A stretch of 42,162 bases of DNA, from positions 1 to 42,162 of the forward strand of contig UYFQ01000638.1 in assembly GCA_900617105.1 (NCBI GenBank), read 5' to 3'. How positions within the stretch are numbered: position 1 is the first letter of the stretch; each line of letters begins with the position of its first letter. The translations under genes were made by a program, and so were the position numbers. Below the pieces are notes generated by a model. It had not been told where the DNA came from. It was given only the letters and a program-made list of their open reading frames with translations, and made no database searches. This DNA comes from Hydrurus foetidus (taxonomy: Eukaryota). Of this stretch, positions 291-42,161 are shown in pieces.

Positions 291-2043
291 TTATACATTG
301 AGCACTTGGTCACGTAGCTCTTGGAATAGCTTCCCCTGCAGTGGCTTGGTCAGCAAATCTGCAATCATTTCTTTAGTACTCTTGTAGGTTACAATAATAT
401 GGTCTGATTTAATTCGGTCATGCAGGAAGAAAAACTTGATGTCTATGTGTCTAGTTCTTTCACTGTTGGACCTACCGTTCTTAACTAACTGAATTGTGGA
501 TAGGTTATCTTGGTAAATTAAAGCTGGACCTACCTCATACTCTTGATGGATAAGGAAATTCCTAGTCCATAAAACCTGATTACCTGCTTCAGTCATAGCT
601 ACTAGTTCTGCCTCTGTGCTAGACGTAGTATTTAATTTCTGAGTGGAACTCTTACCATATATTGCTCCCTTACCTAGTGTTATAATACAGCCAGTGTGAC
701 TCTTCTTATCTGCATGTACAGCGTATGATGCATCTATATAGGCTATAACCTTAACCGGAGTATCTACCTCTAGGGTCAGCGGCATAGCTCTAGTCTCTCT
801 GATATACCGTATAGTATGCGCTAACTTATTCCAGTCGTCGGTTCTAGGTTCTAAGACTCTTTTAGTTAGATATGCTATACATGTCAGTATGTCTGGTCTG
901 GTTCTCTTACTTAAATATAACAACTTAGCTGTTAGTGAGTGGAATCTCTCACGTTCTTTATCTTTCAATAAAGGACTGTTAAGATCGATCTTGAATAGAT
1001 TATCGTCGGCAGGTGTTCTAGACACCCCCACAATCTCTATGCAATCGTCTAACAAGTCTTTTATGAAACCTTCCATGGATATGACAACTCTGCCTAACTG
1101 CTCAAAGTTAAAAGTCATACCTATATAATTCAACACTCTACCTCTACTCTTAGTCAAGCCTGGGTATAGGTTTTCTATCTCTGAAATTATACTATCTATA
1201 CGCTTCTCATCCCTACTGCTGATCATCATATCATCAACATGGATAACTAAAGTAGTCTGAGTGGAATCTAGCTCAGTCCTATTGAATACACATATGTCTG
1301 ATGGATTTACCTTATAGCCTAACTGTGTTAAGTCTGATGATATTTTATCGTACCATAACTTAGCTGACTCTACACATCCATATAATGCTTTCTTAAGCTT
1401 AACTACTACTGTTCCTTTCTCATTTACATACTTCTGATAGGACTTGTCAATGCTAACTAATATGTTAGTCAAATATTTATTCAGTCTCATCAGCACTGCA
1501 TGGTCACCGTCTAGTGGCATATCACTGTTGAGGAATGCACCAGGAAAATCGATCGTAGCGACCGCTCGATTTTCACTAGCAGCAATTGCAGCAACAATAA
1601 ATACGCTAGTGGTGCTAACAGTTGGTGATGAACCGTTATCATATATATTTCTATCTTGTAAATGACCTCCTGCTACAAGTCTAGATTTTAGCTTATCAAA
1701 TTTACCATCTGCTGTATACTTATCTTTTAAAAACATACTGCTGGTTATGATACTTTTCCTCTGATCGTAACTAAGACTGTTGAGGTGAACTGCCTCCCAC
1801 ACATTCTTATCACACATCTGTTGTAACTCTTTTTTAATGGAATCTACGGCTATCTCGCCTAATTTCTGTACTCCTTCTGTTACGGTCATGTTCATCATGT
1901 ACTTACACATAACTGAATCTTTGTAGCTAGGTATACTTAAACCTACTAATCTCTTGTTCCATCTACCTGGCTGATGGTTTCTAGCACTACGTCTGGGTTG
2001 TTTATCTAGAATTTCCTCTGACTTGCTATTTTCTGTGGTGGGG
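291..2043 (-). CDS. Copia pol: linker, reverse transcriptase and RNase H
   Basis: Motifs KSRLVAGG, IDFPGAFL, KALYGC, IHVDDMMI, RTRPDI, YIDASYA, SSTEAE, RHIDIK and ADLLTKPL. The frame is open upstream of 1910 (QPRRSARN linker) to about 2043. Confidence 0.95.
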
Positions 2044-3673
2044 TATCTACCTCATCATCACTGTCTACACCAAATATATCATTCATTAATGCATCGGGGT
2101 CAGTTGGTGTATCGTCATACACTACATCCTCTCCTTCATTAACGTATATATCATTTGGTATGTATTCTGTTAATTGTTCGAACTCTGATTCGTAAGCTAC
2201 ATCAGAATTGCCATCGTATGAGTCAAAATTATTTGCTATCTCATGATGCACAAATTCATCTTCTGTAGGGTAACTATACGGTGTTATCATGTCAGGTGTC
2301 TGCAACTCAAATTCATCGTTGGAGTAATCATTTCCATCGTCTTCGAGGATTTGATTACTCTGTTCGAAAATAGGTTGCTTGACATTCACTGACATATTTA
2401 ATTTCCTCTCAGATGCTAACTTATCGAGGTAACTGATCACATCATCTGTCATTGGTAGGCTAGTAGCCTTTGTCCTCTTTACTACTTTTAAGTTAGCTAA
2501 CAGCAGATAGTACCATGAACCTTCTAGGTTGCCTGCACTAACTAATGCTATTGCTGCCTGTGATCTGGGTTTAGTAGAGTTGTCCACGGAATTGGTATGT
2601 ACTTGTACGTAATCACCGAAAGCGTGTTTCAACTCCTTATCTACGTTAATCTTTCTACCGTATAATTTCTCTCTGGGGCTGACGTAAGCTATACTGTTTC
2701 TAGTTGTTACTAAATTTAATCTGTTCACAACATATCTAAGTAACCAACTTTCTAGTAGCTCACTCAGTGAAAAAGGTACCGTGTTGATGATGGCACGAAC
2801 ACGTTCCTTGATCACTCTGATCTTCCTCTCAACTACAGCTACTGCTTCTCCTGCTCCAGTACTGTCTAATATAATACCTAGTGCGGCTAGCTTACTCTCA
2901 AAACTTATAGTGTTAACTGCCGACTCTCCGTCTATTCTTATCATAGTTATCTTAAATCCATACTTAGTAATGTGATGTATGTTGCTCTCTAAGTTCATCC
3001 ATAAGGAAGACTTGTTTTTACGTGAGAGTTTACATATCATCACATATTCTAAGGGATTTGTAACAGTGACTAGATAGGGTATCGAGTTCACAAACATCAA
3101 ATCTATGTACATAACCTGGTTCAGGAACTGCCTATCTACAACTGGCATCTCTTCCTCTAACTCAGTTTTGTGACTAGTTGTTTTCCCCTTAAGGGAACCC
3201 AAATCTGGTCCAAAAATATCTAATGCTCTAACTACATCTTGTGCTGTTATGTCACTCTTATCTAATTTCCCCTGACCTATTAATTTAATTAACTGTCCTG
3301 GGCTGGCGTAACCTAACTTTCTCTGATACTCTCTAGCTAACTCTGCTGACTTAACTTGTCTAGCTGTATACAGTTTCTTCTTATCCTTAACTGTCATGAC
3401 CATGATCGATTTATCGAACGATACATTCTTGTAACTGACATTTCTGTCTAAGTCGCATAGATATATGTTCGTAGACTGATCATGGACAAATCTATATACA
3501 GGTCCTAACTTAATCATCCTAACTTTGTAACAATCCTGGTCACTGTCATAGCTAACTGACTCGCTCGAGCTGACTATGTTACCGAAGGATAATATATTTG
3601 CTATACAATTGCTATCGTAGTAAACTGTTCCGAAGTCCGTCTCGCCACACTCCGTGATTATCAAGGGTTCCCC
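2006..3673 (-). CDS. Copia pol: C-terminal part of protease and integrase
   Basis: DDE-like motifs YIDLMFVN, RIDGES and VVERKIRVIKERVR, plus AFGDYVQ. The N-terminal ITAQDVVRALDIFGPDLGSLKGKT segment is typical of diatom/stramenopile copia integrases and has no clear HHCC. Confidence 0.9.
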   Translation of the reverse strand, partial: GEPLIITECGETDFGTVYYDSNCIANILSFGNIVSSSESVSYDSDQDCYKVRMIKLGPVYRFVHDQSTNIYLCDLDRNVSYKNVSFDKSIMVMTVKDKKKLYTARQVKSAELAREYQRKLGYASPGQLIKLIGQGKLDKSDITAQDVVRALDIFGPDLGSLKGKTTSHKTELEEEMPVVDRQFLNQVMYIDLMFVNSIPYLVTVTNPLEYVMICKLSRKNKSSLWMNLESNIHHITKYGFKITMIRIDGESAVNTISFESKLAALGIILDSTGAGEAVAVVERKIRVIKERVRAIINTVPFSLSELLESWLLRYVVNRLNLVTTRNSIAYVSPREKLYGRKINVDKELKHAFGDYVQVHTNSVDNSTKPRSQAAIALVSAGNLEGSWYYLLLANLKVVKRTKATSLPMTDDVISYLDKLASERKLNMSVNVKQPIFEQSNQILEDDGNDYSNDEFELQTPDMITPYSYPTEDEFVHHEIANNFDSYDGNSDVAYESEFEQLTEYIPNDIYVNEGEDVVYDDTPTDPDALMNDIFGVDSDDEVDTPPQKIASQRKF

Positions 3674-4071
3674 TGAGGGTTCACTCCATTAATAATCATC
3701 GGGGTAGCGGACGGCATAATACTATAAAATAAATCTCCACTACAAAATACTGACTCTGCTGCACATGTATCTAACAACACTTGTCTCTCTGTAAATGTGG
3801 AACTGTGTGTATATACATTCGCACTAAAAATCACAGGGTCACCCCCACAATTTTTACTGTTCAGTGGACAAAAATTCTCCAATCTGCATGCTTTATCTAA
3901 CAATGGCACAAACGCAGGGTAACCGGTCGACGTTGCAAATACGTCATGCAGTCCGGTTTCCCCACACGGAACATTTACATCCTTAGCTAGTGAATCAGGT
4001 AAAAAAACATATAAGGGACTTACTTTTCCGAGGAAGTGTGACGCGCAGGTGCGTTCTTCCTCAGGGGCTTC
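3661..4071 (-). CDS. Copia aspartic protease N-terminal part (-1 frame relative to gag)
   Basis: VLLDTCAAESVF catalytic-like motif. The frame is open from 4071 to 3661 and overlaps the gag stop. Confidence 0.8.
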   Translation of the reverse strand, partial: EAPEEERTCASHFLGKVSPLYVFLPDSLAKDVNVPCGETGLHDVFATSTGYPAFVPLLDKACRLENFCPLNSKNCGGDPVIFSANVYTHSSTFTERQVLLDTCAAESVFCSGDLFYSIMPSATPMIINGVNPQGNP

Positions 4072-5200
4072 TTACACTCGTACGCATAGTGGCCCTCCTC
4101 CCCGCAGTTATTGCACGCTCCGTAACGGGTGCCGTACTCCTGTACGGCACCACCTCTCTGTCGCTGTGGGGTGGCCTCCCTATCCCTATAGGGAGTGCCT
4201 GCCCTCGCTGTACTCTCGCTGCCGGGGGTATCGTACCCTCCCTTCTCAGCTCCCTGACTGCCTCCGCGGCCTCTGCCGCCTCTCCCACCGGAACCCGCTC
4301 TCCCACCCCGATTGGCCGCGAAAACGTTTCGCTTCTCCGAGTTCGGGGGAGCTCCTCCGTGGACGGGCCTTCCCATAAGGAAGTTGGCCGCGTCCTGGTT
4401 GGCATCACCCATGGTCTGCGGCCATGGGCGAACCTTATTTTTAAACGTATTAATATATTCTGAATAGTTTGAATTCAGTGCAGTTATAAATAAAACAGCA
4501 TGGAACTCATCTGTGTGTTCTGGCGCTTCTTCGTCTGCCAACCTGTAGGCTTCGCTCTTGACAAATAGCAGGGTCCGGCACCTACTATAGTAAGCTGCTA
4601 GGTCTTCGTGTTGAGTCATTTTATTGTTATAAAAGTTTCTAACTGCTGTAATTATGTTATTGGTTTCTCCATACCTTTTGTTGTTCATGTGTGTTGCTAC
4701 CACACATGTCAACAGACCTAGTGGATCACATTCCTCCATGGCTCTCTTCCCAGCAGGCATCTCGTTCACCCTTGTGATCGAGGCCTCTGACATTTGACCT
4801 AATATTACACCATACAGTTTTGCACAGTCTTTTATAAGTAATTCAGATGCAGCATCATATTTCTTACGTGCTGTTTTCCATCTCTCTATCGCGACAAGTC
4901 CTGCTCCCTCCGGCGGATCTTCAGGTTCCACCTGCTCCACGTAGTCGTAGAGGATCCCGTCGATACCTATAATTTCTTTGATAGTAGATTCATAAGTACT
5001 GTACATATATACTCGAAAACATTCAAGCCATTTCAACACAGATTCTGGATCTGCCGCTTGTCCTCGCGGCAAATCCAGGTAAGCACCTACCTCGGGCTTC
5101 CTACCTTTAGATATGGGTTTATGAGGCTCTCCTTGCCCTCTACCATATCGACCCCTGCCCCGCCACGGGACTGGAATCTCCCATCGCCTCGTCCTCTCAT
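4020..5200 (-). CDS. Copia gag with RGG-rich segments and CCHC zinc knuckle
   Basis: CNNCGEEGHYAYEC knuckle and an LYGVILGQMSEAS gag-like segment. The probable ATG at 5200 (MRGRGDGRFQSRG) joins the main ORF through a 1-nt shift at the C-run near 5158-5161. Confidence 0.88.
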
Positions 5201-5244
5201 CCTTGCAAAGCTTTTGCAACTTCTAGCTAATCTATCTAAGGATG

Positions 5245-5255
5245 ACTGTCGTTTA
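5245..5255 (-). promoter_or_regulatory. Non-tRNA primer binding site (TAAACGACAGT), putative self-priming
   Basis: Directly abuts the LTR end CAACA and lacks TGG. It is the exact reverse complement of minus-strand LTR motif ACTGTCGTTTA at 5387-5377. Confidence 0.75.
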
Positions 5256-5534
5256 TGTTGGAAATCTGGGCGATTTACACGGAATTTCTTCCGAGTTCCC
5301 AAACGATCCCTGCACTTCCGACTGCTAGCAACGCTTGCTCAAAAGAGAAGAAGACGTTCTATTCGGTAAGTTGGATTAAACGACAGTGACATGCTGTCGA
5401 TTACATCTAGCTAGCATAACATGAGTGCGAGGGTTGCGGTCAATGCTATCGCTGAATGTACGTACACCCGTGCATGAAAACAATCATACATCACGCAGGG
5501 TACAGGATCCTAGTCTAATCCGGATATCACAACA
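5256..5534 (-). repeat. 5' LTR of copia copy 1 (279 bp)
   Basis: TGTTG...CAACA termini. Aligns without gaps to 38755-39033 (about 24 mismatches by manual count, ~91% identity). Confidence 0.93.
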
Positions 5535-5977
5535 TCGAGTGCCCTTTGTTTGCGCTCAATTGTGGTATTACGGTTTTTTATTTTCTTCGATATCAGCCAA
5601 AATATGATCATTTTTGCACGTTTCAAGAGTAGCAGTGAAGCGCAACTCAACTTTCTTCGAGAATCGTCAACTTTGGGATATGTGAGACATTATGATCTTG
5701 ATAGATCTTGTAACTGATCTTTGGCTCAGCAGCTATTCGAGTTCAAAATCGTCCATTTTGGAGCGAAAACAGTGATTTTGACGGAGGTCAAAATTTCCCA
5801 CATGAAAACGGGGAGAAAGTTTTCCGTGATTTTAAAAGTTTTAAGTGTATTTCCGATAAATCCTAATACGAATACCACATTTAAAAGCGCAAACAAAGGG
5901 CACTCAACGGTATTCTATTGCGGAGATCCGTTGTTGTTGTGTACGGTATACGGCCAGCCGACTAATTTCAACTGATT

Positions 5978-6161
5978 AGAGTGTTTGCGCACCGGAAATT
6001 TCCGGGATCACTTTTCCGAAATGCGTCGGAGATTTGTAGATACCAGGCTATCCCGAAACTTGAGAATCTGGGCGGAGATTCGCCGGCAAAGCGGTACCAA
6101 AGTGAAAATCCCCGGAAATTCATGGGGTATTTCGCCGGAATTTCCGGTGCGCAAACACTCT
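5978..6161. mobile_element. MITE (184 bp) with 23-bp perfect TIRs
   Basis: AGAGTGTTTGCGCACCGGAAATT ... AATTTCCGGTGCGCAAACACTCT, with internal CCGGAAAT-like repeats. Related TIRs occur at 41075-41334. Confidence 0.85.
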
Positions 6162-7341: not shown

Positions 7342-10300
7342 ATGAAGATTAAGCGAGGTGCCTGTCTGGGAACATCGAGCCTTCCAAACGGCTTCTGTGA
7401 TATTCTTGGGGCGAAATCGAGAACTGAAGTTTTGCTGGTGCTGGAGACGTTATCGGATCAGGAAATAGCTGAGCCGGTATGATGAGATACTGTATCTCAG
7501 AATGGAGAGTTTAATATTTCTTGTGTGATCTGGATTGCGTAATATTGAGCTTAAATCACTTAGTTTGGCTTCAGCAGTTTTCGAAATCAACTTATCTTGT
7601 TTTTTTTATCACAGTTCTGATCTGCAACTATATTTGGATTACAGGTCGATCTGCACATATGCACAGAAATATTGAATCTGATTGACAGTGAGCTAGCCCT
7701 GATAGTTGAGAGTTTCAAACTCTTTTCATTAATTCCTCCTGAGCCGAAACAAAGCGATAGTCGTGCTAGCATTGAATCAATACCAGCAGCAACGCAATCT
7801 GACATATCTGATGCGAAGAAAGTGCTTGCATTCACTGCACATCTTCTACAAAATTCCTACAATAAAGAAGTCTACAACTCTGCTGAGGTAAGAAAGCCAA
7901 CTTTCTGTTACTACTTTTTTTACAACAAAATCGGAGCGGAGAATGATAACTTAACTCGTTACTGACAAACGTTTATCTACATTTTCCTCCAGTATGTAAT
8001 GATGTTTTTAAAGTCATACAATGACGACTTGGCTGTGCTTGCTTTGAAAGTTATGGCAACCCTGGCCTGCCCCCCCATGATCCACAAGTGTTTGGAAGAA
8101 AACCGACACGAGACTGCGATCCATAAAAACACTGCTTTATGCAATCCTTTTTTCGAAATAGGTAATCTAGTCCTCTGTATTCATTTTGACATCTGTCTTT
8201 TTTTGATATCTGCAACTATTCTCTTATCCTGGATATTTTCTTTATAATAGTCGAGAGCGCTTTGAAGTGCTCGCTACAGGCGTCAAGTGAAGATATTTTA
8301 CATGATGATTTTGTACTACCCATGCGGAGAAGGAGTGTCCATTTCGACTACAGAGATGTTTCCTTCACTTCCACCATACCTTGTACTAATTCGGGTACTG
8401 TTGGAGAGAGAACTGTTGTCGAGTATGAGAGTGCTGGATTTTCAATGGGGGAAGATTCGTCACTTGTTTGTATTGTCGATGACGTCAGCAATCCAAGTGG
8501 AGATTTTGGTGTTCTTTTCTCTTCTGTTGAATCGACCATGAAGGAGTCTTCTATGAAAGTCCTGCTAAATAGTGCGAAATTCGGACTAATATGGCAAATC
8601 AGACTGTTACGAATGCTGCTGAGCAAAGAAGGGAGGCGGTTATTCCTGGAGTGCGTATTTCACGCAGTGCACACTTTGCTCTGCTGCTATCTAGACGGCA
8701 CTCTACTCTCCCAATTCTTCTTGGATAAACCAGATTTTGTGAAGGATTTTTTGTGCCTGTTGAGAACGGGTCCGGGTTCTGTGGGATTTACCCCCGGGAT
8801 CGTCCCCATTTATTTGAGACAGCTTGCATGCCAGTGTCTGAGTGCAATTGTGGGGTCCAGGGATTCTACCAATGTGTCTGTGTTGGGGGGGAGATTCTCT
8901 TGGCTGCAGCACGATCTTGGTGTTAATAGGTGCGTACTATTTTAAATGGAATGGAATTGTGTTGTCTTTTTTTCTTCTTAAAATCAGAATTTTGGATTTA
9001 TTTGCTCTTTTTTTTGTTGATTATTTCGAGTGTTTATGTTGTACTGCATCTTCAACTTCGCTCGTTACTGCTGCGATTTGTCTGCCCTGTTCCAATGATT
9101 TAATTGTGTACTTCTGGCAATTGCTGGAGCATATTTTTTAAGTGGTGTGCGGTATACGCACTGCATTGATGATGCTGGCAGTGCTGCAATAGTATATCAT
9201 CACCTAAAACCTAGCATTCACGAACCAATTTACTCACTGAGCAACTGTTGTTCTAGAAACGAATAAAACGCCTGACTCTGAATTCAAATTTCTTCACCTT
9301 CATACTTAAATTTTCATTCCGGAAAAATACATTCGTTCCGAATTCATACATGCATGCCTACTTCTCTAATTTAAATTTTTCTTTAAAAAGCCTTCACTGA
9401 AAAACTTATCTCACCTTCACCTATACAAAATAAATTGTTAAAACATCCAGAGGACAGTACATGGGCCTGCTGCCGTGCGTTCTGCGCTCCGTACTGTCAT
9501 TCTTACAGCTTGAAGATGGAGACGCAGACACGCACACGACTGCTACTGCCTCAGGCACTACCACAAGTGAGTTTTGTGGGATTGATTTGGCTTCACATAT
9601 GGAAGTGGACACTACAGTTACTCAACAAGGAGGCAAGGCAGAGCTGCAGCAGTACATGGAGTCTCTTCTGTGGACGGAGAGTGTGTTGGGGCTCACAATG
9701 GCACTAATTAGTGTTACCACCGCTCTACCTGCCCTCACTGACAACGGTGTCATCTCCTCAATAGCATCTGTGCTGAGCAACAAACCGAGGAGTCAGATGT
9801 ACTATGCCACTCGATTTGGAGGCAGTGACGTCAGCAAGAATGACTTGAAGAGAGTGTCAGTGGCTAGAGTGCACATCGACTCTCTGGTAGTGCAGATCTT
9901 AGACACTGCCATCACAAACCACTCAGGCGCATTCGTAGCATTCAAAGATCAAGGAGGAGCTGAGGCAGCACTAGTGCGGCTATTGGACGAGTTGCAGATC
10001 ATGTCCGACCCTGTCTCAACTGACAGCTCTCTGCAGTCTATTGCGGAAGAAACAGCAGCTCAAGTACAGGCAAGCATGGAGACAGATGCTATGATGGTGG
10101 TGGATACGCACGAAATAACGCCACCTCCCCCAGCTCTACAAGAATCCAAATCAGAGACAGAATTAGATTCAGCTGCCATTTCAATTCCAAGTTCTGAGGA
10201 GGGGAGCTCTGAGGGTAGCGAGGAGAAAGCATCTCCAGTACCAGCTCCAGTTGCTCTGACGATAATATCCTCGGAAGCGAGAACAGCTGTGACAGAGGGG

Positions 10301-13300
10301 CAGGGGTGGCGTATCCGCTCTGTGCCTCCTGCCAGCACAGTGCTCATCCATCAGTTGCTCTCCCTCATCATATCATGGGTGCAGGATACCCAGCAGGACA
10401 GTGGAGACCACTTGCATGGACAGCTGTTGAAGGGTCCACTATTTGCTCGTATATTCGGTGTGCTATTTAGTAACGCAGCTGTACTGTCAAGTGCTCTCAT
10501 GTCACAGACTGTAGTGCTGCTGTCAGACATTGTAAACAACGATCCTGCTCCTCCTGGTATGTTGGGGCACATGTTAAGCAGCGGTATTGCAGATCTCGCT
10601 CTTCGGTCTTGTCTCGACCCACTGCTGCTCTACAGCAGCGAACTTCTCATGGGTGTATCCTGTCTCACATCCGCGTGCTGTTTGATGCAAGAGGGAATAG
10701 ATATGGTGATGCGAATCAATCCTTTCGAGCACCTATTTTCTCTCCTATTGGATGAGAAATACTACTACCCGTATTCAAAGATCTTCATGACAGAGGTGCC
10801 CAATCATTTCGGTGTCAGGTACTACACAGATGTGACTTCATCTTGTGCTTCTTTTTTGTCTGGTGGTGTTCTGTGCTGCTCCATACTGTTGGTCTAATCT
10901 GTATTATTGTCATGTATTGACTGGACGAGGATTTATGTTGATGACGCAATTCATCTAGATGCACTGTCGAATCATAGACGTATTATCTCTCATCACCTCT
11001 GTTTCTCTGCCAATCTCACTTTGTCTCTCTCTTTTCTCTTTCTTTCTCTCTTCTTTCTTTCCATTTTCCTCTTTTCTCACTTTCTCTCACTCACTCTTTC
11101 ATTATTAGTTTGGAAGACTTGATCAGGCATTACCCCACATTGCAAAACCTCTGCCTCAGTGCGCTACTCAGCAAGCTCAGTGACGTCGCAGAACTTGCCT
11201 CAAGCGCTAAAGTAATCTGCGGTCCCCAGAATGAGCCGATTCCGCAGCTGGTGTTGCACTCATCATCAGAAGGAACCGAGCAGGTAAATAATATTCAATC
11301 TACCAGCTTTCGCACAATGGTTCGCCAATTGGCAGAACAGGCAGCACATCTCATCCACATTAACATTTCTTACCTTTTATATCGCCATCCTCTTTTCTCA
11401 TTGTTGCAGCCACCAGTGCGGATGATATCAGCGCTGAACAGGGCATATGCAGTGCTTGCATGCCTCGAGCCACTTCTACAACGCAAAGACACTGTCACCG
11501 AAATGGTTGACAATGCAGAGGTCACCGGCCTGATAAACCTGCTAAGGGCTGGACTGGGCACACCCAGGTTCCTTCTCACGTCCCTTGTGTGTTCTATCGA
11601 CTCCACCCCCCATTCCATAGGGGACTGTCCAGTCATCACCGCGATATCTAGGTGCTTCGGACACATTGCAGAAGTGGAGCCGGAAAAAATCATGGTCATC
11701 ATCCTACAGGCGTTGTCTGCGAGCATCACTGACGTGCAGAAAAGACTCGAGGAGTACTGGACTATGTACGGGGATGCCGCTGCCAGCTCTATTGCTCTTG
11801 ATCTGCATCTGCAAGGACACGACAGACCAGCACCGCCAGACACCTTCAAGCTGCATCGCTTCCTGGACACGATATCGAGGAGACCGCTGCAGGATATCTG
11901 CCCAGAAGAGCTCTCAGAAGACTTGACGGCATTCGCTGACGTACTGAAATCCATAGCTGTAGTAGACTACTTGACATCCTCCCTCGCATCCGTAATACAG
12001 CCTGCGGGGGGTAAGGCACTCTCTGAAGCGTGCATCAAAGTGCTCTCCACTCCTGAGAATGTAGCCACCATCAGACTACTCGTAGATGGGATATACGTGG
12101 GGTGTCAAAGGGAAATGGCCCGAGCCAAGGGGTGCTTCGCTGATGTGAAGAAAGCGGACAAAGTGAAGAATCACCCGGTGTACAAGCTGTTGGTCATTTC
12201 TATGGACAGCATCATTGTTAAGGAGAGTGCGGACGAGAACAGCAAGAGGGTGTGCAAGATAGAGAGAGGAGCTGTAGTGGATGCCTATGAGCGCGTCTTC
12301 AGCACAACTAACATGATGCGCTATAGGGTGGATGACGGATGGGTGAGTCACTTTCGTAATGCATCATCGTCAGAGCCTCAGATACAGGTGGTGGATGTCA
12401 CGTGCAAGAGTGCAGAGATGCTGGAGATTGAAACAGCAGCAGCAGCAGCACTGTCTAGTGACAACAACAAGTCTTCTGATCTCGAGAAGTTTGCTAACAT
12501 ATCGCCCAGGAGGGGTGGTTTCATGTCTTTGTTCCATCTCTTAACATCCACAAGGTATCATCTGCTCATGTATGCATCAACACCTGCAATACTTTACCTC
12601 GCGAACCGCATTACCGCTGATTTTTATAATATCTTCCGTTCTTTCCGCTGTACTAGATACCTGTTGAGCAACATAGTGCGCACTTTTGTAACCACGTCAG
12701 CGGGTCGTCTGGCTCTCTGTGAATCTGGAAAAGCTGTGATATCTGTGCACACACCGCACTACCTCCCGATGGTGCACCAATGCATGCAGTCCATCGTGCC
12801 TCAGCTGTCTGTGTCCACTAATGCGGAGACAGCAATGGAGGCGAGACCCATCACAAAGACTACCTCTGGCAGTGAAAAGGAAGGGGAGAATGAGAGAGAT
12901 GTAACGGATGCGGATGACGAAGATATCGACCCTTCTTTCTTTGTATCTGGAGTGGTTCCCTCAATAACCGATCTGGGTCCGGAAGAGATGTACTTGATCA
13001 TTAACTCGGCTGAGTTGTGCTCCGCCCTCCTCTTCGATGACAGAAGGTATGAGGCGTCAAACCGGTATGACAAAAGGTCAGATATTGATTTCAATGTCTG
13101 TGCACATGTCCATTATTTTATAACACTATTTGCCAACTGTCTGTTTAGGGGTCGACAAGAGGTCAACAGTCTGTTGTTCTCTCACGTGCTCTACAGAGGC
13201 GATCTGCTGGAGAGAGTCATCAGCGCGACTAGCACTGTCTTCTTCTGTGCCTTAGAGTTGGAACCCGACTGCGCAATATCTCCCCCGATCGGTATAGCGG

Positions 13301-16300
13301 CACTTCTAGATACAGGTGCAGGTGTGGCTGCTGAAGAGGAGCATGAAGACGATGAGTCCATGAGTGCTGAGGAGCGCTCTGTTCTATTCGCTAAGAGAGG
13401 GCGCAGGAAAGCTCTCAAAGAGAGACGTCTCCTAGCAGTGTCTAGCATAGACGGCATCATCGACTTCTGGAAGCAGATTCTCACAGTTAGTGGACTGACG
13501 CCAAGCAATTCTGAGAGATCCCTCCAAGGCTTCGTGGATGAAGAGCACGACTTCGACCCTTACGCCTTTAAGAGAAGAACCATCGCCATACTCATGCGCT
13601 ACCTCCCCGCTATGTGGTCACATGAAGCAGTGAGCACTCTGCCCCCTTCTACTGTGCGCAACCTACTGGACCTCATGCAGGTCTCTTTGAAATCCCTTCA
13701 GGACAGCAAGTTTTTCCCTCTTCAAAGCGCAGTGTCGGAGAGAGACCGTCTGCGCACCATATCTGAGGCAGCCACTCTCGCGCTGAACAGTTCAAGAGCC
13801 AGTGCTAGAGCTAGCAGACGTGCTTTAACAGCAGTGGGTGCGAGTGATGGAGTTCAGAGCTCTTTCCGCGTGAACGAGAGCTCTGTCTCTATCCTAACAG
13901 ACATGGGTTTCTTGGCAGAAGACATACGTAGACTGGCCTCTACACTACGCACCAACAGCATCTCAATCCTCACCACACACCTTCTCGAAGTGAGTTCCTT
14001 GCCCCCTGTTACGAGTAGCGCAATCAGCGGCACTTCACTCGACTCCGGTGCTGAGGAAGTCCTACGAGCTGAGCAGACAGGCTCTTCTACAGCAGAAGCC
14101 ACAGCAGTCGCTGAGAACGCCGCCACTACTGCTGAGACTAACTCCGATGCTACTCTTATTGCTACTGCCATTGCTGATGCTGATGACACAGCACCAATAG
14201 CACTTGATGCAGAACCGTCTATGAATATTCAAGACACCACTGAGCAGCTTCCCATTGCAGTCCCAGAGGGCGTGGAAGGAGTATCCTCAGAGACGAAATT
14301 AATTGATTTCTTGTTCACTGTTGCTAAACCTCTGCCTCTTATACCAAGGCTACCCAGTGAGAAAATGTTGAGAGGCAAGACAGTACTGCAGCAGATCTTA
14401 CAGAAGGTGCTCAGCATGGTGCCTTCGTCTTGTCTGCGCTTGATAGAAAGAGGAATTGTGAGGTCGGGTGGTGAATGGGGCATTGAAGTGTCCTCAGCCA
14501 ATCAGGTGCGTTTGTATTTAGTTATGTTGCCACGAAATTTATCGATGAAAGTAAAGGACTTAGTACCCAATCAGTGGTCGGCTCGAGTTCTGTTGACTGC
14601 ATAACTCTTAATAGCGGATGCGGAGTGTACTCTTTTCTACCCGCAAGCTTGTAACATCTCTTCCTTTCATCGCAATCTCATCTCATTCCAACTCACCTAC
14701 TGCTATTCCTACCACTTCCTTCCCTACCTTCTCCTTACATGCAGGGAGTCACACGTGAAGTCACCACGGTCATGGTGTTGAATCAGATGATGCGCTGTCT
14801 GGAGCGACAGAGCTGGTCAGAGGGACTGATGAAAACTGTACAGCTCACCTGGCTATACGAACATGCTATCGGAATCCTAAAGGCTCCATCCACCGTGACT
14901 GATAAGTAAGTGGCTCTGCACTGCAAGTGTGTGTGTGTGTGTATGCGTGTGTTGTAGCGTTGTCAGCGAAATATCGACCGTACTTCGCCTCAAAGTCATT
15001 ACCTGAAACGAATCGTAATGAAGAAAATCTAAGTCATCCGCTGCTTTCTGGTCTCTTATTCCTCTTCTCTTCTTTTATCTAGCGCATCATCTCTGATGAG
15101 TAAGTGGTCACGACTGTATGGGATACTCCACGCCATCCTTCTGCTGCTCGCTGGTAGAGTGGCCTCTGCGCAGCATCCCCGCAACCACCTAGCGGGCAAC
15201 GAGATGCCCTTCCTCATATTCTCCAGAGCACCTCAATTCACCGAGCTGTACGATCTGTTGATACCCGCCCTGGAAAAATTCGCTGCGGTGGAACTGCCTA
15301 TACCTGCACCCCTATCTCCATCTATACCTACATCTACACCTGCACCTATGGGATCCAGTAACGGTGTTGCCGAGAAGAGTGCAGAACCAGTATGGAGTGA
15401 TGTCATAGCAGACCCCGAACCCGCAGTAGAAATGCGGATATCAGAAGAGACTTGTGACGACAAGACTGACGCACCCACACTGACGTCTTCTCAGAACAGT
15501 GACGCACTTATGAGTGATGCAAGCGGAGTTGCCAGTGAGAGGTTGTGGATGGGTCCGGCAGTACTCATTCTAGATTTGATGACTCAGAGCCTCTTGGTGG
15601 ACAAGACTGCATTGAAGGTGAGTGATGCACAATACACGTACATAGATACATGCACCCTTACACGAATAGACTGAATGATGAGGATAAATATAGACATGCT
15701 AATCGGGTTTCCTTGACTTTGCAGTCGGCTTAAGTCGGAATTTGTCCGTAGAACTTCAGCTACATGCTCTATACTGTCGTTGTTATCCATCAGACAGATG
15801 TGACTAGGACAGTCAGTGAGTGAGTGAGTTTTAGATATGTGAAGGAAAGTCGTGGTGCAATCCATCACGACCTTAATACAGACACCTGTTTTAATCACGA
15901 CTGCTTGTATAACCACAAGTCCATCGCATTAGATAACTTTCCTCCCCTCCAATTATTTTAGGTCGCTCTGGAAGAGTTAGAGAAGATGAGTCACATGCAG
16001 CAACTCTTCTCTGGTAACACTGCCAGGTCCAGTCAGAAGCTATCCGACCCTGTAATCGACTCTCAGAGTTCTGATAGCCTCAATGTGGTACGGCGGAAAT
16101 TCGGCGTTAGCAGTAGTAGTACTCGCAGTCTGAGTGTAAGTCAGAATCGTTCATCCTATCAAAGCGACTATGCAGTGTCTCTTGATTTCATTCAGGAGTT
16201 GAAAGATGAGTTCCTTGACAAGAAAGATAGCGTCGTATCCTACAAGAGAAAGAGAAAACTCGCAGCTGTGGATCTGGATGACACAGACGATACTAGTGGC

Positions 16301-19300
16301 GAAGATGTACGCAACCCGTACGGTATGAGGGGTAAGTTCGCCTTCCACGCATCGTACATAGCATCGAAGAAGGCCAACTCTGCTGCAGGAGAAGACATAG
16401 ATGGTGGGGTGGGAAGTAATGACATAGCCATGACAGACTCTCGTCTCCCACTAGCGGTGTGTGGGCTGAGTGCTGCGAAGAAGGAAAGATGTGTAGACAT
16501 ATGTCTCCGACTGCTCCGACAGTACTCCGACTACAAACACAAGATAGACGCACAAACTACACTCCGCGCCATGCATAAAGAGAAAGCTGCCCCCACACCG
16601 TCCCCGGCCACCCCAGCCCTCCCGACCCCCATTCCTATTGATTCCTCGTTACCCCAAGCAGCAGTGCAGCTATTGGTGCACGTTACCAGGGACAGGGATG
16701 TGCGGATGCATTTCGAGAGAAGTGGAGGGGTGCATGCACTGATCTCCACTATACCCCCTTTCGAAGGTACGTAAGTCACGCAGTACATCACATTGTACGT
16801 CATACTTCATATGATAAAATCCTCGTGACCAGAATAAAACCTTTAATTCCCATGTCCTCTTTTAGCGTCACACCGCACTCCCATACTGGCTTCTCATATG
16901 TTCCTACTACACACACTTGTACAGGGATGCCGAACCTGCTGTTTACCGTACTGCAGCACGTGCTGGAAGACCCCACACTCCTCGCAGCCTCCATGGAAAG
17001 CACTGTAAAGATGTGCTGGCTGCGATTGAGCAAGCTAAAGACCAACAAAGTCGCCTTTAAGCATCTCATAGAGATACTGGCTCCACTCATACACCGTGAC
17101 CAACAGACATTTGTGCAAGTTATGCGCACCAACATTCGACTTTTCCGTTCGGAAGGCTTGCTGTGCACTGCACTAAAGGAACCAGTGCAGCAGACAGAGG
17201 CGGAGAAGGAGGGAGAAAAAGCGAAAGAGGGAGAGGATGCTGGTCTCAAGAAACCTTCATCTGCCCTCGATGCAAAACAGACAACTGCAGGAGGGAATGT
17301 GGAGTTGAAGGTAGATGAGAGCACGGGAGAATTAAATATCAGAAAAGCTGGTGAGGGTATCACAACTAGCGACGCTAAAAAAGCGGACGAAATCGTCCCA
17401 GTTATGGAGACAGAAGGGGAGAGGTCTCATGTGAGCACGCCCAAGGTCTCTACCTCTGCCTCTATTTCGACCTCAAGTAATCTAGCCTCTACTAAGCGTC
17501 AGAAAACCGCAGGGAACAATTTCACAGCACTCCCATCTGCTTCCAGTAGCAATGCCCTTTCGAGCAACAGCATAGCAGCTGGGATCAGGACACCTGTGCG
17601 GTCATCCATGAAAGAAAGAAGGAGGAAATCACTGGAGACCGGTACCCCCAATTGTGTGCCTGTCCCAGTGACTGGTGCTCAGTCTGTGATAGAGGACCTA
17701 CTAGGCTTAGCCGTGAGTCAGTGGGCGAGATACCAAGCAGCTGTCAACTACTGCACGCACACATACGGGGCAGCTGATCAGGGTAACCTTCACACTGGTG
17801 TCACTGATGACTCTCAGTCTCACACTTTATCTCTCCCTTCAGCACCCTGCCATTTGACAATAGCAGAGATCATGCTGGTCGTTGGTGATCTGGTGTCAAT
17901 CGTGCCAGGGCTGGCAACTTGTGTGCATAGGTGAGTTGAGTTCGAGTGTACAGCGATGTCAGCGAGATACATGTGTAGTAATGTCATTCTCACTGTTAAT
18001 CGTACGTCTGTATGTCTGTTTCCCCGTGACTTTTTGCTATCCTGCCCTGACCAAAAGCCATCACCACACTACACCACAGGTATCACATAGGCAAGCCGAA
18101 TGTAGCCGTAGCCCCGGTAGGGGTGTCGATATCCTCGACCTCCATCCCTGCGACCTCCTTCGTTACTTCCACACACGCATCTGCCGACTTAAAGGCCCTG
18201 GAGAAATCTCTATGTCTGCCAACTCGACACGTTCTCACTGGACAGGCTCTGCCTTCTACCCTATTCCTCCCCTTTCTCGTGCATCGCTTGGTGATTCCTA
18301 ACACCGCCACTCGTTTCGAACTTCCTGACTCCGCATCACCTGAGACAATAGAGGAAGCGAAAATGCTCCAGTTGATAGCCAAGTGCACATCAGGCGCTAG
18401 GTATGACGAGGCGGCTAGCTACCTCCTTGCAGCTCTTGCATCCAGACCAGGAGATGGCAGGAGGAGGACTATTGAGGAACTCATATCCGCCCTGAGAGTG
18501 ACCTGCCAGCTAGACACAGCTCAACAATTGAAATGTGCCACTCAAGCTGCTAAGGTGATTCAACAATTCATCACTCCACCCGCTGACTGGGCGGCAAGGG
18601 AGACATTCTTCGTACCCTCGAGGGACCTCCTTCAAGCTTTCTCCCAGCTGAACGCACACAAGGTGCTTGATGCAGCCATCTGGGCAGTGAGCACTGCACA
18701 TCCCCTAGCCCTAGAAGCCACTATAAAGATGTGCGAACCATTAGAGACCATCATCAGGAAGGGACTGCCTTTGGTGAAGGCCAAGGGTATTACCCCTCCT
18801 GATGTTGGCACCCCTACAGACATCCCCTCAGGGAAACAAGATATTGCTGCGGAGAGCGGTGCCAGTGTCTTAGGAGTGGAGGACAAAGAGACAGTTACTG
18901 CTGATTCCTCAAAAGCAACAGACAAGGACAATGCAGTCACATCTAGTGAGCCTCCATCTGTATCAAGCATTGCCGTTGGTGCTGCTGTTGGTAAGGTTGA
19001 TGGCACATCCACGTGGGAGATGACTCCTCCTCAGGACGTGCCCATTCTCGGGTCACCCTTAAGGGAGAGAGGGGACACCATCGATTCACATGATAGTGGA
19101 AGTGCCTTGAGAGGGGTAGGGGCGGAACTGGAGCATCTGTCAGAAGACCCCCACCATCTGATGATAGGGGCGGATCAACGCATGACCAACGGTGACAGCT
19201 CTGATGAGCATGACAGTGATGATGGAGATGAGCACGACAGTGACGAAGATGATGATGAGGAGGAGGACGATGAAGAGGATGATGACGACCTAGAGGAGGA

Positions 19301-21654
19301 TGATGATGACGATGAAGAAGATCAGGATAGCGAAGATTACGAGCATGATAGAGATGATGTGCACTTTGAAGACGGTGTAAGCTCAGGGGGAGGTCGTGCC
19401 TCCTTCAACTTCAATGTGGAAGGTGTCAACGTGTCCGGTCGTCTGTCCCCTCGTGGGTGCCCTGATGATGAGGATGATGATGACCATGAACACGACAGAA
19501 TGGATGATGACGCAGGGGAAGAAGAAGACGAAGACGAAGATGCCGATAATATCTTGAACATCAATGATGATGATGACGAGATAATGGACGACATGTTCGA
19601 AATGGCTGATGATGATGAAGATCATGGAGAAGAGGATGAAGAAGAAGAAGATGAAGATGGTGAGATAATGGGTGCAGTAGGCGAGGATGACGAGTTCAAC
19701 GATCTCGAGGAGGATGACGATGCTGCTATGGGAGGTGCACATGCTATGGCTGGTGGCAGAGGGGTAGTTGACTTAGAAGATCAAGAGGGCGAAGAAGAAG
19801 GAGACGCAGATGGAGAGGGGGCGGAGGAATTAGAGGAGGAAGACTACACAGATGCGGAGAGTAGATTCCCTCCAGGACTAGCTAGACTGCTCCCAACAGA
19901 GAGCTTTGGCCGCTCTGCAAATCTTGGCGCCCACTTAATCCGTCTGCAGCAGCAGTTTCATCTTCAGGGGGGTGCTTTAAATCGTCAGCAGCTAATGGGC
20001 ATCACAGCCATGAGGGGTGGATATGGGGCAGATTTGGTGGAGAACGATGACGGAGCTCTGCAGATGCGTGTCAACGGCTATGATGGTGAACCAGTGCGCA
20101 TAGAGGTCGTGAACATTACGGGGGGGCGGGACGGTCGGTCCAGGGGCCGCACACATGTGACCAGTGGAGATGATAGAACCCAGTCCCAAATGCGTAACTT
20201 CATCACAGAAATGATGCCGGGTAGCATGATTGCGACTAGTAACATGGGAGGTGTGTCCAGAGGAGGGTCCAATCCAGTCTACCCCTTCTCCCGCATGGGA
20301 AGGCCTCATGCAACCCCCGCCCTCCCCGCTACTGGTATAGGGGCTTCTCTGCCCTTCCCCGTCACGCACCCCCTCCTGAAGGTGTCCGATCCAGGTCAAG
20401 CACGACAGCTGCAGAATGCCGGATCTGGCCGATCCGGTTCATCCAGTACCAGCGGGGGCATCTTCGGAGCCATCTTCACAGCTATTAGAGAGAGAGGCAA
20501 CCAGGGGTATGATGATGTACGTCAGGCCCGTCTGAGCGTATCCACGAGAAGGAGGGCTCTAGGCCCGTTGGTGTCTGACAGGCGGTGGGGCACGGATATT
20601 GGAGAGGTAGAAATTGTTGGATCCCGCATGCCCACCCTGCTCGCCAATGTAGGCACAGCACTTGGTGACAATCCAGAGCAGTCTAAGGAGAAAGAAAAGG
20701 AGAAGGAGCGACTAGCCGCAGCAACTCACCCTTTTCTGGCGAGACGTGTCACATCAGCTGTGGATGAAGAGCAAGAAATGGATATCATGTATGAAGAGCA
20801 GCCGGGAGGATCGGGAGACGATCACGATGATGATGACGGTGATGACGACGAAAATGAAGATGAAGATGAGGAGGCCGATGATGCAGGTGACAGGGATGAA
20901 GAACAGAGAGACAGGGAGGCAGAAGAGGAGGAGTGCAAGGAAGAAGGAGAGCTAGAAGAGACGAAAGAATGCGATACAAGTGATGCTGTGGGCAGAGGGG
21001 GAGACTCTTCAACTTCCTCTACCACGGTGTTTCCTGCAACTGCTGCTACCTCTTCATCGTCATCCTCATCGTCCCTTGAAGCAGTCCCTGTCCCTGTCCC
21101 AAGCAACTCTTATGCAAATTCCATTATCAATCAGATATTGGCCGCCACACATGTTGTCGATGATGACACGAGCGATGACTCTGCGATTGGTCATGACGCA
21201 TCTGCACCTGCTGCCGTCACCACCCAGTCGGAGGCAGTGACGGATGCAGCTGCAGCTCTCACCGTTGACATCCCTGTCCATACCTCTGACTCTGACGTCA
21301 CACCGGAGCAGTTATTCGCAACACCCATAAGCCTCTATTCGGATTCGACTTCCGAAGCACCCCTTCCAGCAGTCCCAGCTGATGTCATCCCGCCTGCTGT
21401 CCACTCAACAGCACCAGTCGTCAAAACAGGCACATTCCCTGGAGTATCCGATGAGGTCTGGGCTGCATTGCCCTTCGAAATGCAGACAGAGCTCCTAGTA
21501 TCAGTGGGCATGCAGGCAGAGGCAGATGCTCTCTTAGACGCAGAAATAACCGCTACTGGTAAGTCCACAACGCAATACAATGCTTCCATAGCTACCCTCT
21601 CCTGGACGTTTGCATTTGATACAACTTCTCGTAGTGTCTTTATCAAAAGCGCTA

Positions 21655-21692
<38 letters not shown>

Positions 21693-38754: not shown

Positions 38755-39033
38755 TGTCGTAAAGCTGGCCGATTTACACGGAATTTTCTCCGAGTTCCCA
38801 AACGATCCCTGCACTTCCGACTGCTAGCAACGCTTGCTCAAAAGAGAAGACAACATTCTATTCGGTAAGTTGGATTAAACGACAGTGATGTGCTGTCTAT
38901 TACATATAGGTAGCATAACATGAGTGCGAGGGTTGCGGTCAATGTTATCGCTTAAAGTACGTGCACCCGAGCCTGAAAACAATCATGCATCACACAGGGT
39001 ACAAGATCCTAGTCTAATCCGGATATCCCAACA
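38755..39033 (-). repeat. 3' LTR of copia copy 2 (279 bp)
   Basis: TG...CAACA termini; colinear with 5256-5534. Confidence 0.92.
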
Positions 39034-39042
39034 CACCCCCAT
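39034..39042 (-). promoter_or_regulatory. Polypurine tract (ATGGGGGTG) preceding the 3' LTR
   Basis: The minus strand reads ATGGGGGTG immediately before LTR start TGTTGGG. Confidence 0.8.
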
Positions 39043-40128
39043 GATGTTCATTGTTTGAATAAGTGAATATGCCAATTAGCATATGCTTGTATAGTAAACA
39101 TAGTGGTTATTGGTCATTATATTTCACACATCATTCAGATAGGGAACTTAGTTTTAGGGTATAATAAACAGTAAATTTTCTTAAAAATATTTTTCACGGA
39201 ATTTTTTAATATTGACAAGTTGCATCGTGAAATAGTATAAGAATAAAACATGGGTGGCTGAATAAGTGGATGGGTATTACCGGAGAAAAACTATTTCTAA
39301 TGAGGTAAAAAATAAAAAAAACGTCTCCTCATGGACGGTCTCGAGTTCGATCCAACTAATGTTGGTGCCCTTAAATCCACTTTAACTCTAGCATCCGATG
39401 TCGCAGGAGCGATATATCGATATTTTCAATGGTCCTATCAATTAAATGTTGATTTAAAGCGAAATCAGATTTTTTTTTTATTTTCTATTTTAACTGGAAA
39501 AAACGTTATATTATGTGGATGAGTCAAAATCTATAAATGACTCCCCTGGATTTCTTTATGCATTGAGCACTTGATCTCGCAACTCTTGAAGTAGCTTCCC
39601 TTGCGGCGGCTTGGTCAGCAAATCTGCAATCATTTCTTTAGTACTCTTGTAGGTTACAATAATACGGTCGGATTTAATGCGGTCATGCAGGAAGAAAAAC
39701 TTGATGTCTATGTGTCTAGTTCTTTCGCTGTTAGTGCTACCATTCTTGGCTAACTGAATCGCGGATAAGTTATCGTAAATTACACCTGCACCTACTTTAT
39801 ACTCTTGAGGGATAAGGAAATTCCTAGTCCATAAAACTTGATGACCTGCCTCAGTCATAGCTACTAATTCTGCTTCTGTGCTAAATGTAGTATTTAGTTT
39901 CTGAGTGGAGCTCCTCCGATAGATTGCTCCCTTACCTTGTGTTATAATGAAACCAGTGTGGCTCTTCTTATCTGCATGAACAGCATATGACGCATACATA
40001 TAGGCTATAACGTTAATTGGAGTGTCTACCTCAAGGGTCAGCGGCATAGTTCTAGTTCCTCTGATGTACTGTTTAGTATGAACTAACTTTTTCCAGTCAT
40101 CAGTTCTGGGTTCTAGTACTCTTTAGAG

Positions 40129-41070
40129 CTGCGTGGGAGCTAGGGTTTGGACGAGCGACCCTATTGCCTACATAGGGCCCCCTTCTTAGGAAACCCTAGA
40201 TAGGGCCCTACATAGGGTGAACGTACACGTACTTACGTACGTACAGGTGTTCGTACTTACGTACGTGCACGCACAAGCTACTGAGGCTGTTATAGCTTTA
40301 TTCTTTACTTAATTTTTTCTCCAAAAAGAGTTTGTTTGCTACATCCTTTTATTTAGGTTCGCATGAAAAATTTAGTCAACCTACAACTTATTCTTCAAGC
40401 TGTTCCGCTGCACAACTCTAGAACCTGTGAAATCGTGACTGCATATGCGACATCTGTAGATATTGCTTCCGGATGCAGTCTTTCTCAAAATGAAGCAGTA
40501 CCTGTCGATGAGACCACTTGGCTGCACAATATTTGGATCAGCATCCCGAGGAGTTTCCTTGGAAAGAGGGTCAATGATGTTGCGGCTGACGTAATTGTTC
40601 ATTCTCACAAGCAAGAAGTTATTGACTCTCTTCACTAAGGGGGTGGGATACCACTCTGTATAGCTCTCAGCTGGAAGCTTCGGAGGCACAACCCTTCTCG
40701 CTAGACCACACTGTATGACTCCGTACCGCACGCACTATCAGACCCCTCCGACTCTCTCCTTGGTTCGAACCTGGAACTTTTTTGACATTAGTGTAGTCCA
40801 CTATAACACTCTCAACGAATTATCCCATGTTTGGGGGTTCGGACCCGCGAGTAGCGCCAGGTCGTTTCCGGTGAACAGACCGCTATACCAGTCACCCATT
40901 GGTTTCGTAATGAAGCCCAGAAATGTCAAATACAGACTAATGCTAAGGTCTACTTTCAAAATTAATAATTAGTATGGTGACCCTACGTCAACTCCTGACC
41001 CTAGATAGGGCCCTAGATAGGGGATTTTGGGTTTACCCTATCTCGGGCCCTATCCCTAGCTCCCACGCAG
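40129..41070. mobile_element. Non-autonomous hAT-like DNA transposon (942 bp)
   Basis: 17-bp perfect TIR CTGCGTGGGAGCTAGGG and 8-bp TSD CTTTAGAG (40121-40128 and 41071-41078). Subterminal CCCTA(G/C)ATAGGG palindromes occur at both ends. Confidence 0.88.
40381..40602 (-). pseudogene. Truncated transposase N-terminus with BED-finger-like motif
   Basis: DRYCFILRKTASGSNIYRCRICSHDFTGSR resembles the CxxC..F.G part of a BED finger; the His ligands are missing. Confidence 0.55.
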
Positions 41071-41074
41071 CTTT

Positions 41075-41334
41075 AGAGTGTTTGCGCATCTGAAATTACT
41101 GAGACTCTGCGGACCCTGGATCTTTCTGATTCCCCGAGATTTTCCGTGTTTTGCAGATTTCTTTTTAGAATACCGTGATTCTCTCGCAAATTTGCGAAAT
41201 CAAATTGTTGAGATCCCGTGAATCTCTGCAGGGGATTTGCGAGATTCTCGTAAATTTCGAGATTGTGGGGGTCAGACCGGGAAAAAGGGGGTCAGAATCT
41301 CTGTAATTTCTAATTTCCAATGCGCAAACACTCT
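41075..41334. mobile_element. MITE (260 bp), TIR family shared with 5978-6161
   Basis: AGAGTGTTTGCGCAT...ATGCGCAAACACTCT. Inserted in copia RT; comparison with copy 1 (ACTCTTTTAGTT) implies a 3-bp TTT duplication. Confidence 0.85.
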
Positions 41335-41870
41335 TTTTAGTTAAATATGCTATACATGTCAGAATGCCAGGTCTGGTTCCCTTAGTTAAATATAACAACT
41401 CAGCTGTTAGTGAGTGGAATCTCTCACGTTCTTTATCGTTCAATTAAGGACTGTTATTATCGATCTTAAATAGATTATCGTCAGCAGGTGTTTTTGACAC
41501 CCCCACAATTTCTATGCAATCGTCTAACAAGTCTTTAATAAAACCTTCCATGGATATAATAACTCTCCCTAACTGCTCAAAGTCAAATGTCATTCCTATA
41601 TGATTCAGTACTTTATCTCCACTCTTAGTTAAGCCTGGGTATAAACTTTCTATTTCTGAGATTATGTCATCTATATGCTTTTCATCCATACTGCTGATCA
41701 TCATATCGTCAACATGAATAACTAATGTAGTCTGAGTGGAGTCTAGCTCTGTTCTGTTCTATTGAATACACATATATCTGATGGATTTACCTTATAGCCT
41801 AGCATTCTTAAATCTGATTAAATTTTATCATAGAATAACTTAGCTGACTCTACGCATCAATATAATGCTT

Positions 41871-42161
<291 letters not shown>

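Follow-up and report, generated by a model that had tools for sequence, protein, structure and literature searches.

Predicted self-priming of reverse transcription in a divergent clade of Ty1/copia retrotransposons

The window analysed here is a stretch of 42,162 nt from the Hydrurus foetidus assembly GCA_900617105.1 (contig UYFQ01000638.1), and it carries parts of two copies of a Ty1/copia retrotransposon, designated copy 1 and copy 2. This element very probably primes its reverse transcription in a Tf1-like manner, with the first 10–11 bases of its own RNA. The putative primer-binding site, TAAACGACAGT (5245..5255, minus strand), directly abuts the end of the LTR with zero spacer and without TGG. 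The exact complement of this site, the predicted self-primer ACTGTCGTTTA (5377..5387, minus strand), lies inside the LTR at the inferred start of R. The sequence basis of this reading comprises the pairing itself, its flush position at the LTR end, its persistence in a clade of relatives that spell it with different letters, and an initiator-like motif at its edge. Self-priming had been put forward in the first-pass annotation of the window, and covariation in 11 of 11 testable relatives, together with pairing that starts at the initiator-like motif, argues for it.

Copy 1 is a Ty1/copia element on the minus strand of 5534-1, with only its 5' part inside the window. Its 5' LTR (5256..5534, minus strand) is 279 nt long and reads TGTTG...CAACA. 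The LTR edges were set independently, by comparison with the second LTR and by the loose ends of contigs in sequencing runs, which fall at 5256 in four of four runs and at 5534 in three of four (among the matches listed). A 55-nt leader separates the LTR from the gag ATG at 5200. On the minus strand, gag (4020..5200; one CCHC zinc knuckle) is followed by the first portion of pol, which includes the protease motif LLDTC (3661..4071), the remaining protease and integrase (2006..3688), and the reverse transcriptase (HVDD) with RNase H (YIDAS, EAEL, YQDN, ADLLTKPL) at 291..2051 (Pfam RVT_2, E 7e-22). Integrase upstream of RT is the copia order, and the assignment to Ty1/copia is borne out by TG...CA LTRs, a purine tract ahead of the 3' LTR (seen at copy 2), and the order gag, PR, IN, RT, RH with an RVT_2-type RT. 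The integrase part of copy 1 (2006..3688) matched no Pfam family and no chromodomain. Since pol of copy 1 aligns to close relatives in three frames and gag shifts frame near its 5' end, copy 1 is probably broken and immobile on its own. Its 3' LTR would be expected just before the window start, outside the window. Neither copy has both of its ends inside the window, which leaves no flanking pair in which a target-site duplication could be read.

The family is very abundant, with 103–1664 contig records over 451 nt in each of four sequencing runs; the two environmental runs with coverage came from biofilm and freshwater sediment. No variant at 3% or more was seen in either pairing arm among the run contigs, an invariance to which we gave no weight because large parts of the LTR vary just as little. 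The listed RNA runs contain only small shares of the window and were not used as evidence. In the subfamily of the window element, gag has a frame of its own that overlaps the pol frame (at 4071-4020 in the window), gag homologs end in SSEK and pol homologs have about 1200 aa, vs. a single long frame in the relatives L004, L006, and L013. A longer Gag beginning at an in-frame ATG within the LTR was considered and rejected, as there is a stop in the window frame and most homologs begin with MRGRG or similar.

The self-primer motif corresponds to LTR positions 148–158 (5387-5377) and is preceded by TC, hence its A is the A of a TCA. The surrounding TCACT (5385..5389, minus strand) fits the initiator-like TCAH(+1)W described for diatoms (PMC4686930), with a predicted start at 5386 (H) or 5387 (A). 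Re-derived coordinates agreed with the first-pass description of a post-LTR site lacking TGG, an exact 11-nt LTR complement at 5387-5377 that begins at the A of a TCA context, and pairing that ends at 11 nt on the downstream side; it ends there on the upstream side as well. The 11-mer occurs at three window sites only (5245, 5377, and 38876), with zero one-mismatch copies. None of 2000 dinucleotide shuffles reached 11 nt (mean 5.2, maximum 10).

Copy 2 (41873-38755 in total extent) is a second decayed copy ending in a 3' LTR (38755..39033, minus strand; 91% identical to LTR 1), in which the motif is intact at 38886-38876. This LTR (39033-38755) was recognized as a 3' LTR by the purine tract before it, ATCATGGGGGTG (39034..39045, minus strand), which abuts it, and by flanking DNA after it; no primer site lies alongside. 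Most relatives likewise have GGGGTG or GGAGTG just ahead of the LTR. The decayed 3' part of copy 2 (RT-RNase H; 39254..41873, minus strand) is broken by an insert of about 1.2 kb of other sequence (40124-41327), after which the copy ends at a 290-nt AG/TC microsatellite (41871-42161). The first-pass annotation had counted the motif of copy 2 in favor of self-priming. Its offset of 121 is correct, as is the block of 33 unchanged nt (LTR positions 146–178), but both carry little weight: with 24 mismatches in 279 positions between the two LTRs, an 11-mer would stay unchanged with a probability of ~0.37 (0.914^11), and the 3' LTR of copy 2 has no adjoining primer site. A longer unchanged block (LTR positions 184–245) also exists elsewhere in the same LTR pair. 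We rejected this conservation as an argument for self-priming.

The copy 1 LTR abuts a MITE-like element of ~370 nt (5535-5910) with terminal inverted repeats of ~35 nt (5537-5569 and 5871-5905, 89% alike). In other copies from the run contigs, the left repeat of this element runs a few bases further, and copy 1 seems to sit within the tip of the repeat. Elsewhere, the window contains a large HECT E3 ligase gene over several frames (8190-26836, plus strand; DUF908, DUF913, HECT) and, at 34665-36107, a frame that codes for a P-type ATPase.

Related DNA was taken from one JGI contig, from 21 eukaryote-type contigs filed within prokaryote MAGs, and from further contigs of those MAGs. Overall, 27 loci had an RT profile score above 380, and 13 of them, equal to 11 distinct elements, contain the LTR-gag junction (the near-identical pairs L003/L004 and L005/L006 were each counted once). 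The other 14 loci (L002, L008, L009, L011, L012, L015, L016, L017, L018, L020, L021, L029, L096, and L123) were dropped before the count, their junction lying off the contig. The RT of the 11 testable relatives is 38–56% identical to that of the window element. Many relatives are collapsed single-LTR assemblies. The purine tract served to place the LTR start (beyond the contig in L095, approximate in L022), and the LTR end was the CA giving the longest match at no more than 90 nt from the gag ATG, a rule that the shuffles of the relatives followed in the same way as the real sequences. Seven of the 11 chosen ends read AACA, the mirror of the TGTT start. A gag scan of metagenome contigs confirmed one of 114 candidate stretches, three scans of viral contigs yielded no relative, and the RT profile had no match among solved structures.

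Several features of this material were recorded in passing. Eukaryotic retrotransposon contigs (L002-L022) are filed within prokaryote MAGs, two of which (G002 and G013) gave 68 and 69 RT-profile matches. By eye, the DNA upstream of the L022 LTR (L022:1300-1790) resembles a portion of the L097 region in reverse complement, with two families side by side and head to head. A stretch in the 5' part of the long frame ahead of gag-pol in L015 (L015:1-1000) looks like what we take to be a SET domain.

All 11 testable relatives carry, in their own LTR, an exact complement of 9–16 nt to their own post-LTR sequence, located 62–221 nt upstream of the LTR end. The covariation between the LTR motif and the primer site that the first-pass annotation had named as a check on its proposal is thus present in every testable relative. 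The complement measures 16 nt in L004, 15 nt in L007, L010, and L022, 14 nt in L001, L006, L013, and L094, 10 nt in L095, and 9 nt in L014 and L093. In eight relatives, the observed length was reached by 0 of 2000 shuffles; in the short-match relatives, it was reached by 5 (L095), 12 (L014), and 19 (L093) of 2000. In these three, the exact pairing is just 9–10 nt long and its edge lacks an initiator; by eye, their pairing extends past a one-base bulge. The primer sites themselves are unrelated among the elements (3.7 of 11 bases agree on average, 7 at most), and none starts with TGG. When a site was compared with the LTR of another element, the match averaged 4.2 nt with a maximum of 9 nt (n = 156); the maximum, the L093 site against the L014 LTR, equals L093's own match.

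In an IQ-TREE reconstruction of 27 RT-RNase H rows (midpoint-rooted, built from these rows without named references), the 12 elements together with L021, which has no testable junction, form one clade with support of 99/96. The addition of L097, a long-branch neighbor with its own 11-nt LTR match (2 of 2000 shuffles), lowers the support to 83/58. A FastTree reconstruction of 45 rows, likewise midpoint-rooted and without named references, recovered the same clade. Under the same rule, ten RT elements outside the clade gave matches of 3–10 nt; the 10-nt match, in L102, lies 1442 nt distant and was reached by 6 of 300 shuffles. Of the outgroup elements, only some (L099, L119, and L120) had a clear tRNA-type site. 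Members of the clade score 61–101 bits on RVT_2 with no SH3 or rve matches, vs. 140–197 bits and SH3 in three outgroup copia; L097, L117, and L121, outside the clade, are likewise low on RVT_2 (41–49 bits). The LTRs of the window element and L001, when compared, showed no similarity. As the trait is common to a deep clade in which the two compared LTRs are so dissimilar, it looks inherited within the clade, and the LTR/leader exchange from a Tf1-like donor that had been suggested at first is not needed as an explanation.

The edges of the duplex are also regular. On the 3' side of the primer, pairing ends at the LTR edge or one base inside it in 13 of 13 elements. At the 5' pairing edge, YCA was found in 9 of 12 elements against 0.63 expected, a pattern first spotted by eye and then tested. 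The fuller TCAHW, with its A at, or one base ahead of, the first paired base, was found in 8 of 12 against 0.19 expected (P ~1e-12). The motif is a loose one: TCAHW occurs in 67.9% of upstream regions of P. tricornutum (PMC4686930), and as a diatom motif it may not be that of the window's host. The first paired base is the H of TCAHW in five relatives and the preceding A in the window element, L004, and L022. Since five relatives pair from H, the predicted +1 may be 5386, not 5387, and the primer 10 nt long, if the published diatom reading holds. In agreement with a 10-nt primer, HKRQ is kept in five gag homologs with called frames through the primer site, and the residue after it is either S (two homologs) or A (three). 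Indirectly and at the protein level, this implies that the 11th base of the site varies among them.

The proposed mechanism can be outlined as follows. Transcription would start at 5386 or 5387, and the capped 5' end of the RNA would fold onto the primer site, closing a loop of ~120 nt. The RNA would then be cut just past its last paired base, probably by the RNase H of the element as in Tf1, and the 3' OH so freed would lie opposite the first base of U5; for Tf1 this cleavage was reportedly shown by Levin in 1996, and RNase H motifs are present in the element studied here. The reverse transcriptase would then extend the primer into U5 and produce minus-strand strong-stop DNA. The mechanism is ascribed to the high-copy family of copy 1, not to the broken copy 1 itself. 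In predicted folds begun at the putative +1, the primer duplex had a probability of 0.89–0.99, and in the window element the motif was paired with a probability of 0.96 in a fold begun at the motif. A local hairpin, CGACAG-catgtca-CTGTCG (5401-5381, minus strand; GACAG/CTGTC kept in copy 2), extends across the predicted start into the primer motif. This hairpin would be relevant solely to RNAs started upstream or to the 3' LTR copy; with 20 upstream bases included, the primer duplex still beats it in the fold (0.97). Of the side duplexes of Tf1, the U5-end duplex was detected at p ≤ 0.05 in 2 of 13 elements and the leader duplex in 0 of 13; in most elements the side duplexes do not rise above chance, and the three-duplex pretzel was not recovered. 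A single duplex seems sufficient here, vs. Tf1 with its two side duplexes.

The lack of Tf1-type side duplexes in the 13 elements, along with the presence of the motif in both LTRs, would also agree with priming by the same LTR motif from another molecule or end, either the 3' end of the transcript, where the 3' LTR supplies a second R, or a short RNA begun within the LTR, and neither would need an RNase H cut. We regard this route as quite improbable: the upstream limit of pairing is the initiator-like motif, with no extension into U3, which fits an RNA 5' end, and a 3'-end primer could pair farther upstream than is observed. Covariation, for its part, reveals selection on pairing and not the purpose of pairing, so the duplex could be a conserved RNA structure for packaging, dimerization, or translation control, with priming by another route; fungal GalEa copia are described as carrying a hairpin of unknown role at the place expected for the primer site (PMC5445492). 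A purely structural role is nevertheless distinctly improbable, given that one arm begins in all elements at the first post-LTR base, the place required for the end of a primer, that the other begins at the predicted +1, and that the window element has no TGG site between the LTR and the gag ATG.

As a source of a conventional primer, a tRNA half or another host small RNA was also considered. The complement in the window element, A-CU-GUC-GU-UUA, resembles the anticodon loop of tRNA-Asp(GUC), and this likeness would favor such a primer. Priming by half-tRNAs is documented in the copia elements Osser, Bryco, and Bianca (PMC6317226). Rfam gave no match at 4900-6000 and ARAGORN found no tRNA over the window; moreover, twelve unrelated sites would each require a host RNA plus a chance match in the element's own LTR, and the probability of this reading is very slim. 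That the 11-nt match is mere chance has negligible probability: eleven bases are short and the second copy contributes little, but 0 of 2000 shuffles reached this length for the window element and the pattern recurs with other letters in 11 relatives.

Beyond self-priming in the window element, we incline, with some reserve, to a wider reading, according to which a large, deep-branching copia clade of aquatic microbial eukaryotes wholly dropped tRNA priming and uses the capped first 10–16 bases of its own RNA in a single duplex with no pretzel, either independently of Tf1/sushi and plant TAR or in continuation of a state that predates tRNA priming. An additional large clade of copia in which primer and site covary freely would indicate that the switch from tRNA can be clade-wide and stable, and the copia RNase H would have to cut an RNA-RNA duplex without a pretzel scaffold. 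Benachenhou 2013 speculates that the ancestor of LTR elements self-primed and that priming by tRNA is a late arrival (PMC3601003), a proposal to which the clade is relevant. Should diatom CoDi elements fall within the clade, a transformable diatom offers a direct test. The paired motif should also predict the transcription start of each family, and annotation tools that require a tRNA site would probably misjudge the elements of this clade.

Self-priming has been experimentally shown in gypsy elements of fission yeast, and the Tf1 primer is 11 nt long. As in Tf1/Tf2 of Schizosaccharomyces pombe and the Tf1/sushi group, including plant Tcn1, the site of the window element lies right after the 5' LTR and can pair with the 5' end predicted for the element's own RNA; it abuts the LTR and complements the element's own LTR sequence, not a tRNA 3' end. 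Tf1/sushi elements, for which self-priming and the pretzel are described in 10.1101/2022.12.06.519325 and PMC5341516, are chromoviruses with the Ty3/gypsy order and a chromodomain integrase, whereas the window element has the copia order, an RVT_2-type RT, and no chromodomain match. In addition, the duplex of the clade is 9–16 nt long, and the three-duplex pretzel was not detected. The mechanism is Tf1-like, yet the element is not a member of Tf1/sushi.

Among copia, the clade resembles the divergent CoDi elements of diatoms (CoDi1-7, lineages CoDiI/II; GyDB CoDi-A to D), as defined by Maumus 2009 (PMC2806351). The atlas clusters nearest to the integrase of the window element are mostly Bacillariophyta, with 1–4 labelled members each. 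By the markers given in Llorens 2009 (PMC2774666), which are not diagnostic, one CCHC and no chromodomain differ from CoDi-A (zero, chromodomain present) and CoDi-D (two) and fit CoDi-B or C. The clade is probably CoDi-related, a plausible but unproven assignment that draws on these markers and atlas clusters. Primer sites, priming, tRNA, and Tf1 go unmentioned in the main text of Maumus 2009, and the words 'primer' and 'priming' are absent from that of Llorens 2009; in the open literature (subscription journals, Repbase, and theses were outside the scope), we found no paper in which CoDi or stramenopile copia were proposed to self-prime. Fungal GalEa copia with the Conserved Hairpin Site also have no tRNA primer site (Donnart 2017, PMC5445492). 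By that description, however, both GalEa arms lie downstream of the LTR, their sequence is conserved, and no LTR complement was found, whereas the window clade has one arm in the LTR and a sequence free to change.

Within copia, a precedent exists in the plant lineage TAR. The first-pass annotation, which described copia as normally primed by tRNAs or tRNA halves, had missed it: Neumann et al. (2019) predicted self-priming for 89% of 203 TAR elements from an LTR match of at least 10 nt to the post-LTR sequence, citing an earlier proposal for Houba and Osr-1 (PMC6317226). As in TAR, the post-LTR sequence of the clade matches its own LTR. In contrast to TAR, known from plants and with Gag-Pol in one frame, the clade comes from aquatic metagenomes and has an RVT_2 profile unlike that of three typical copia; judging by the description of TAR, the two may have separate origins. 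The window element is consequently not the first copia case, and with it the mechanism is extended to a divergent and widespread clade.
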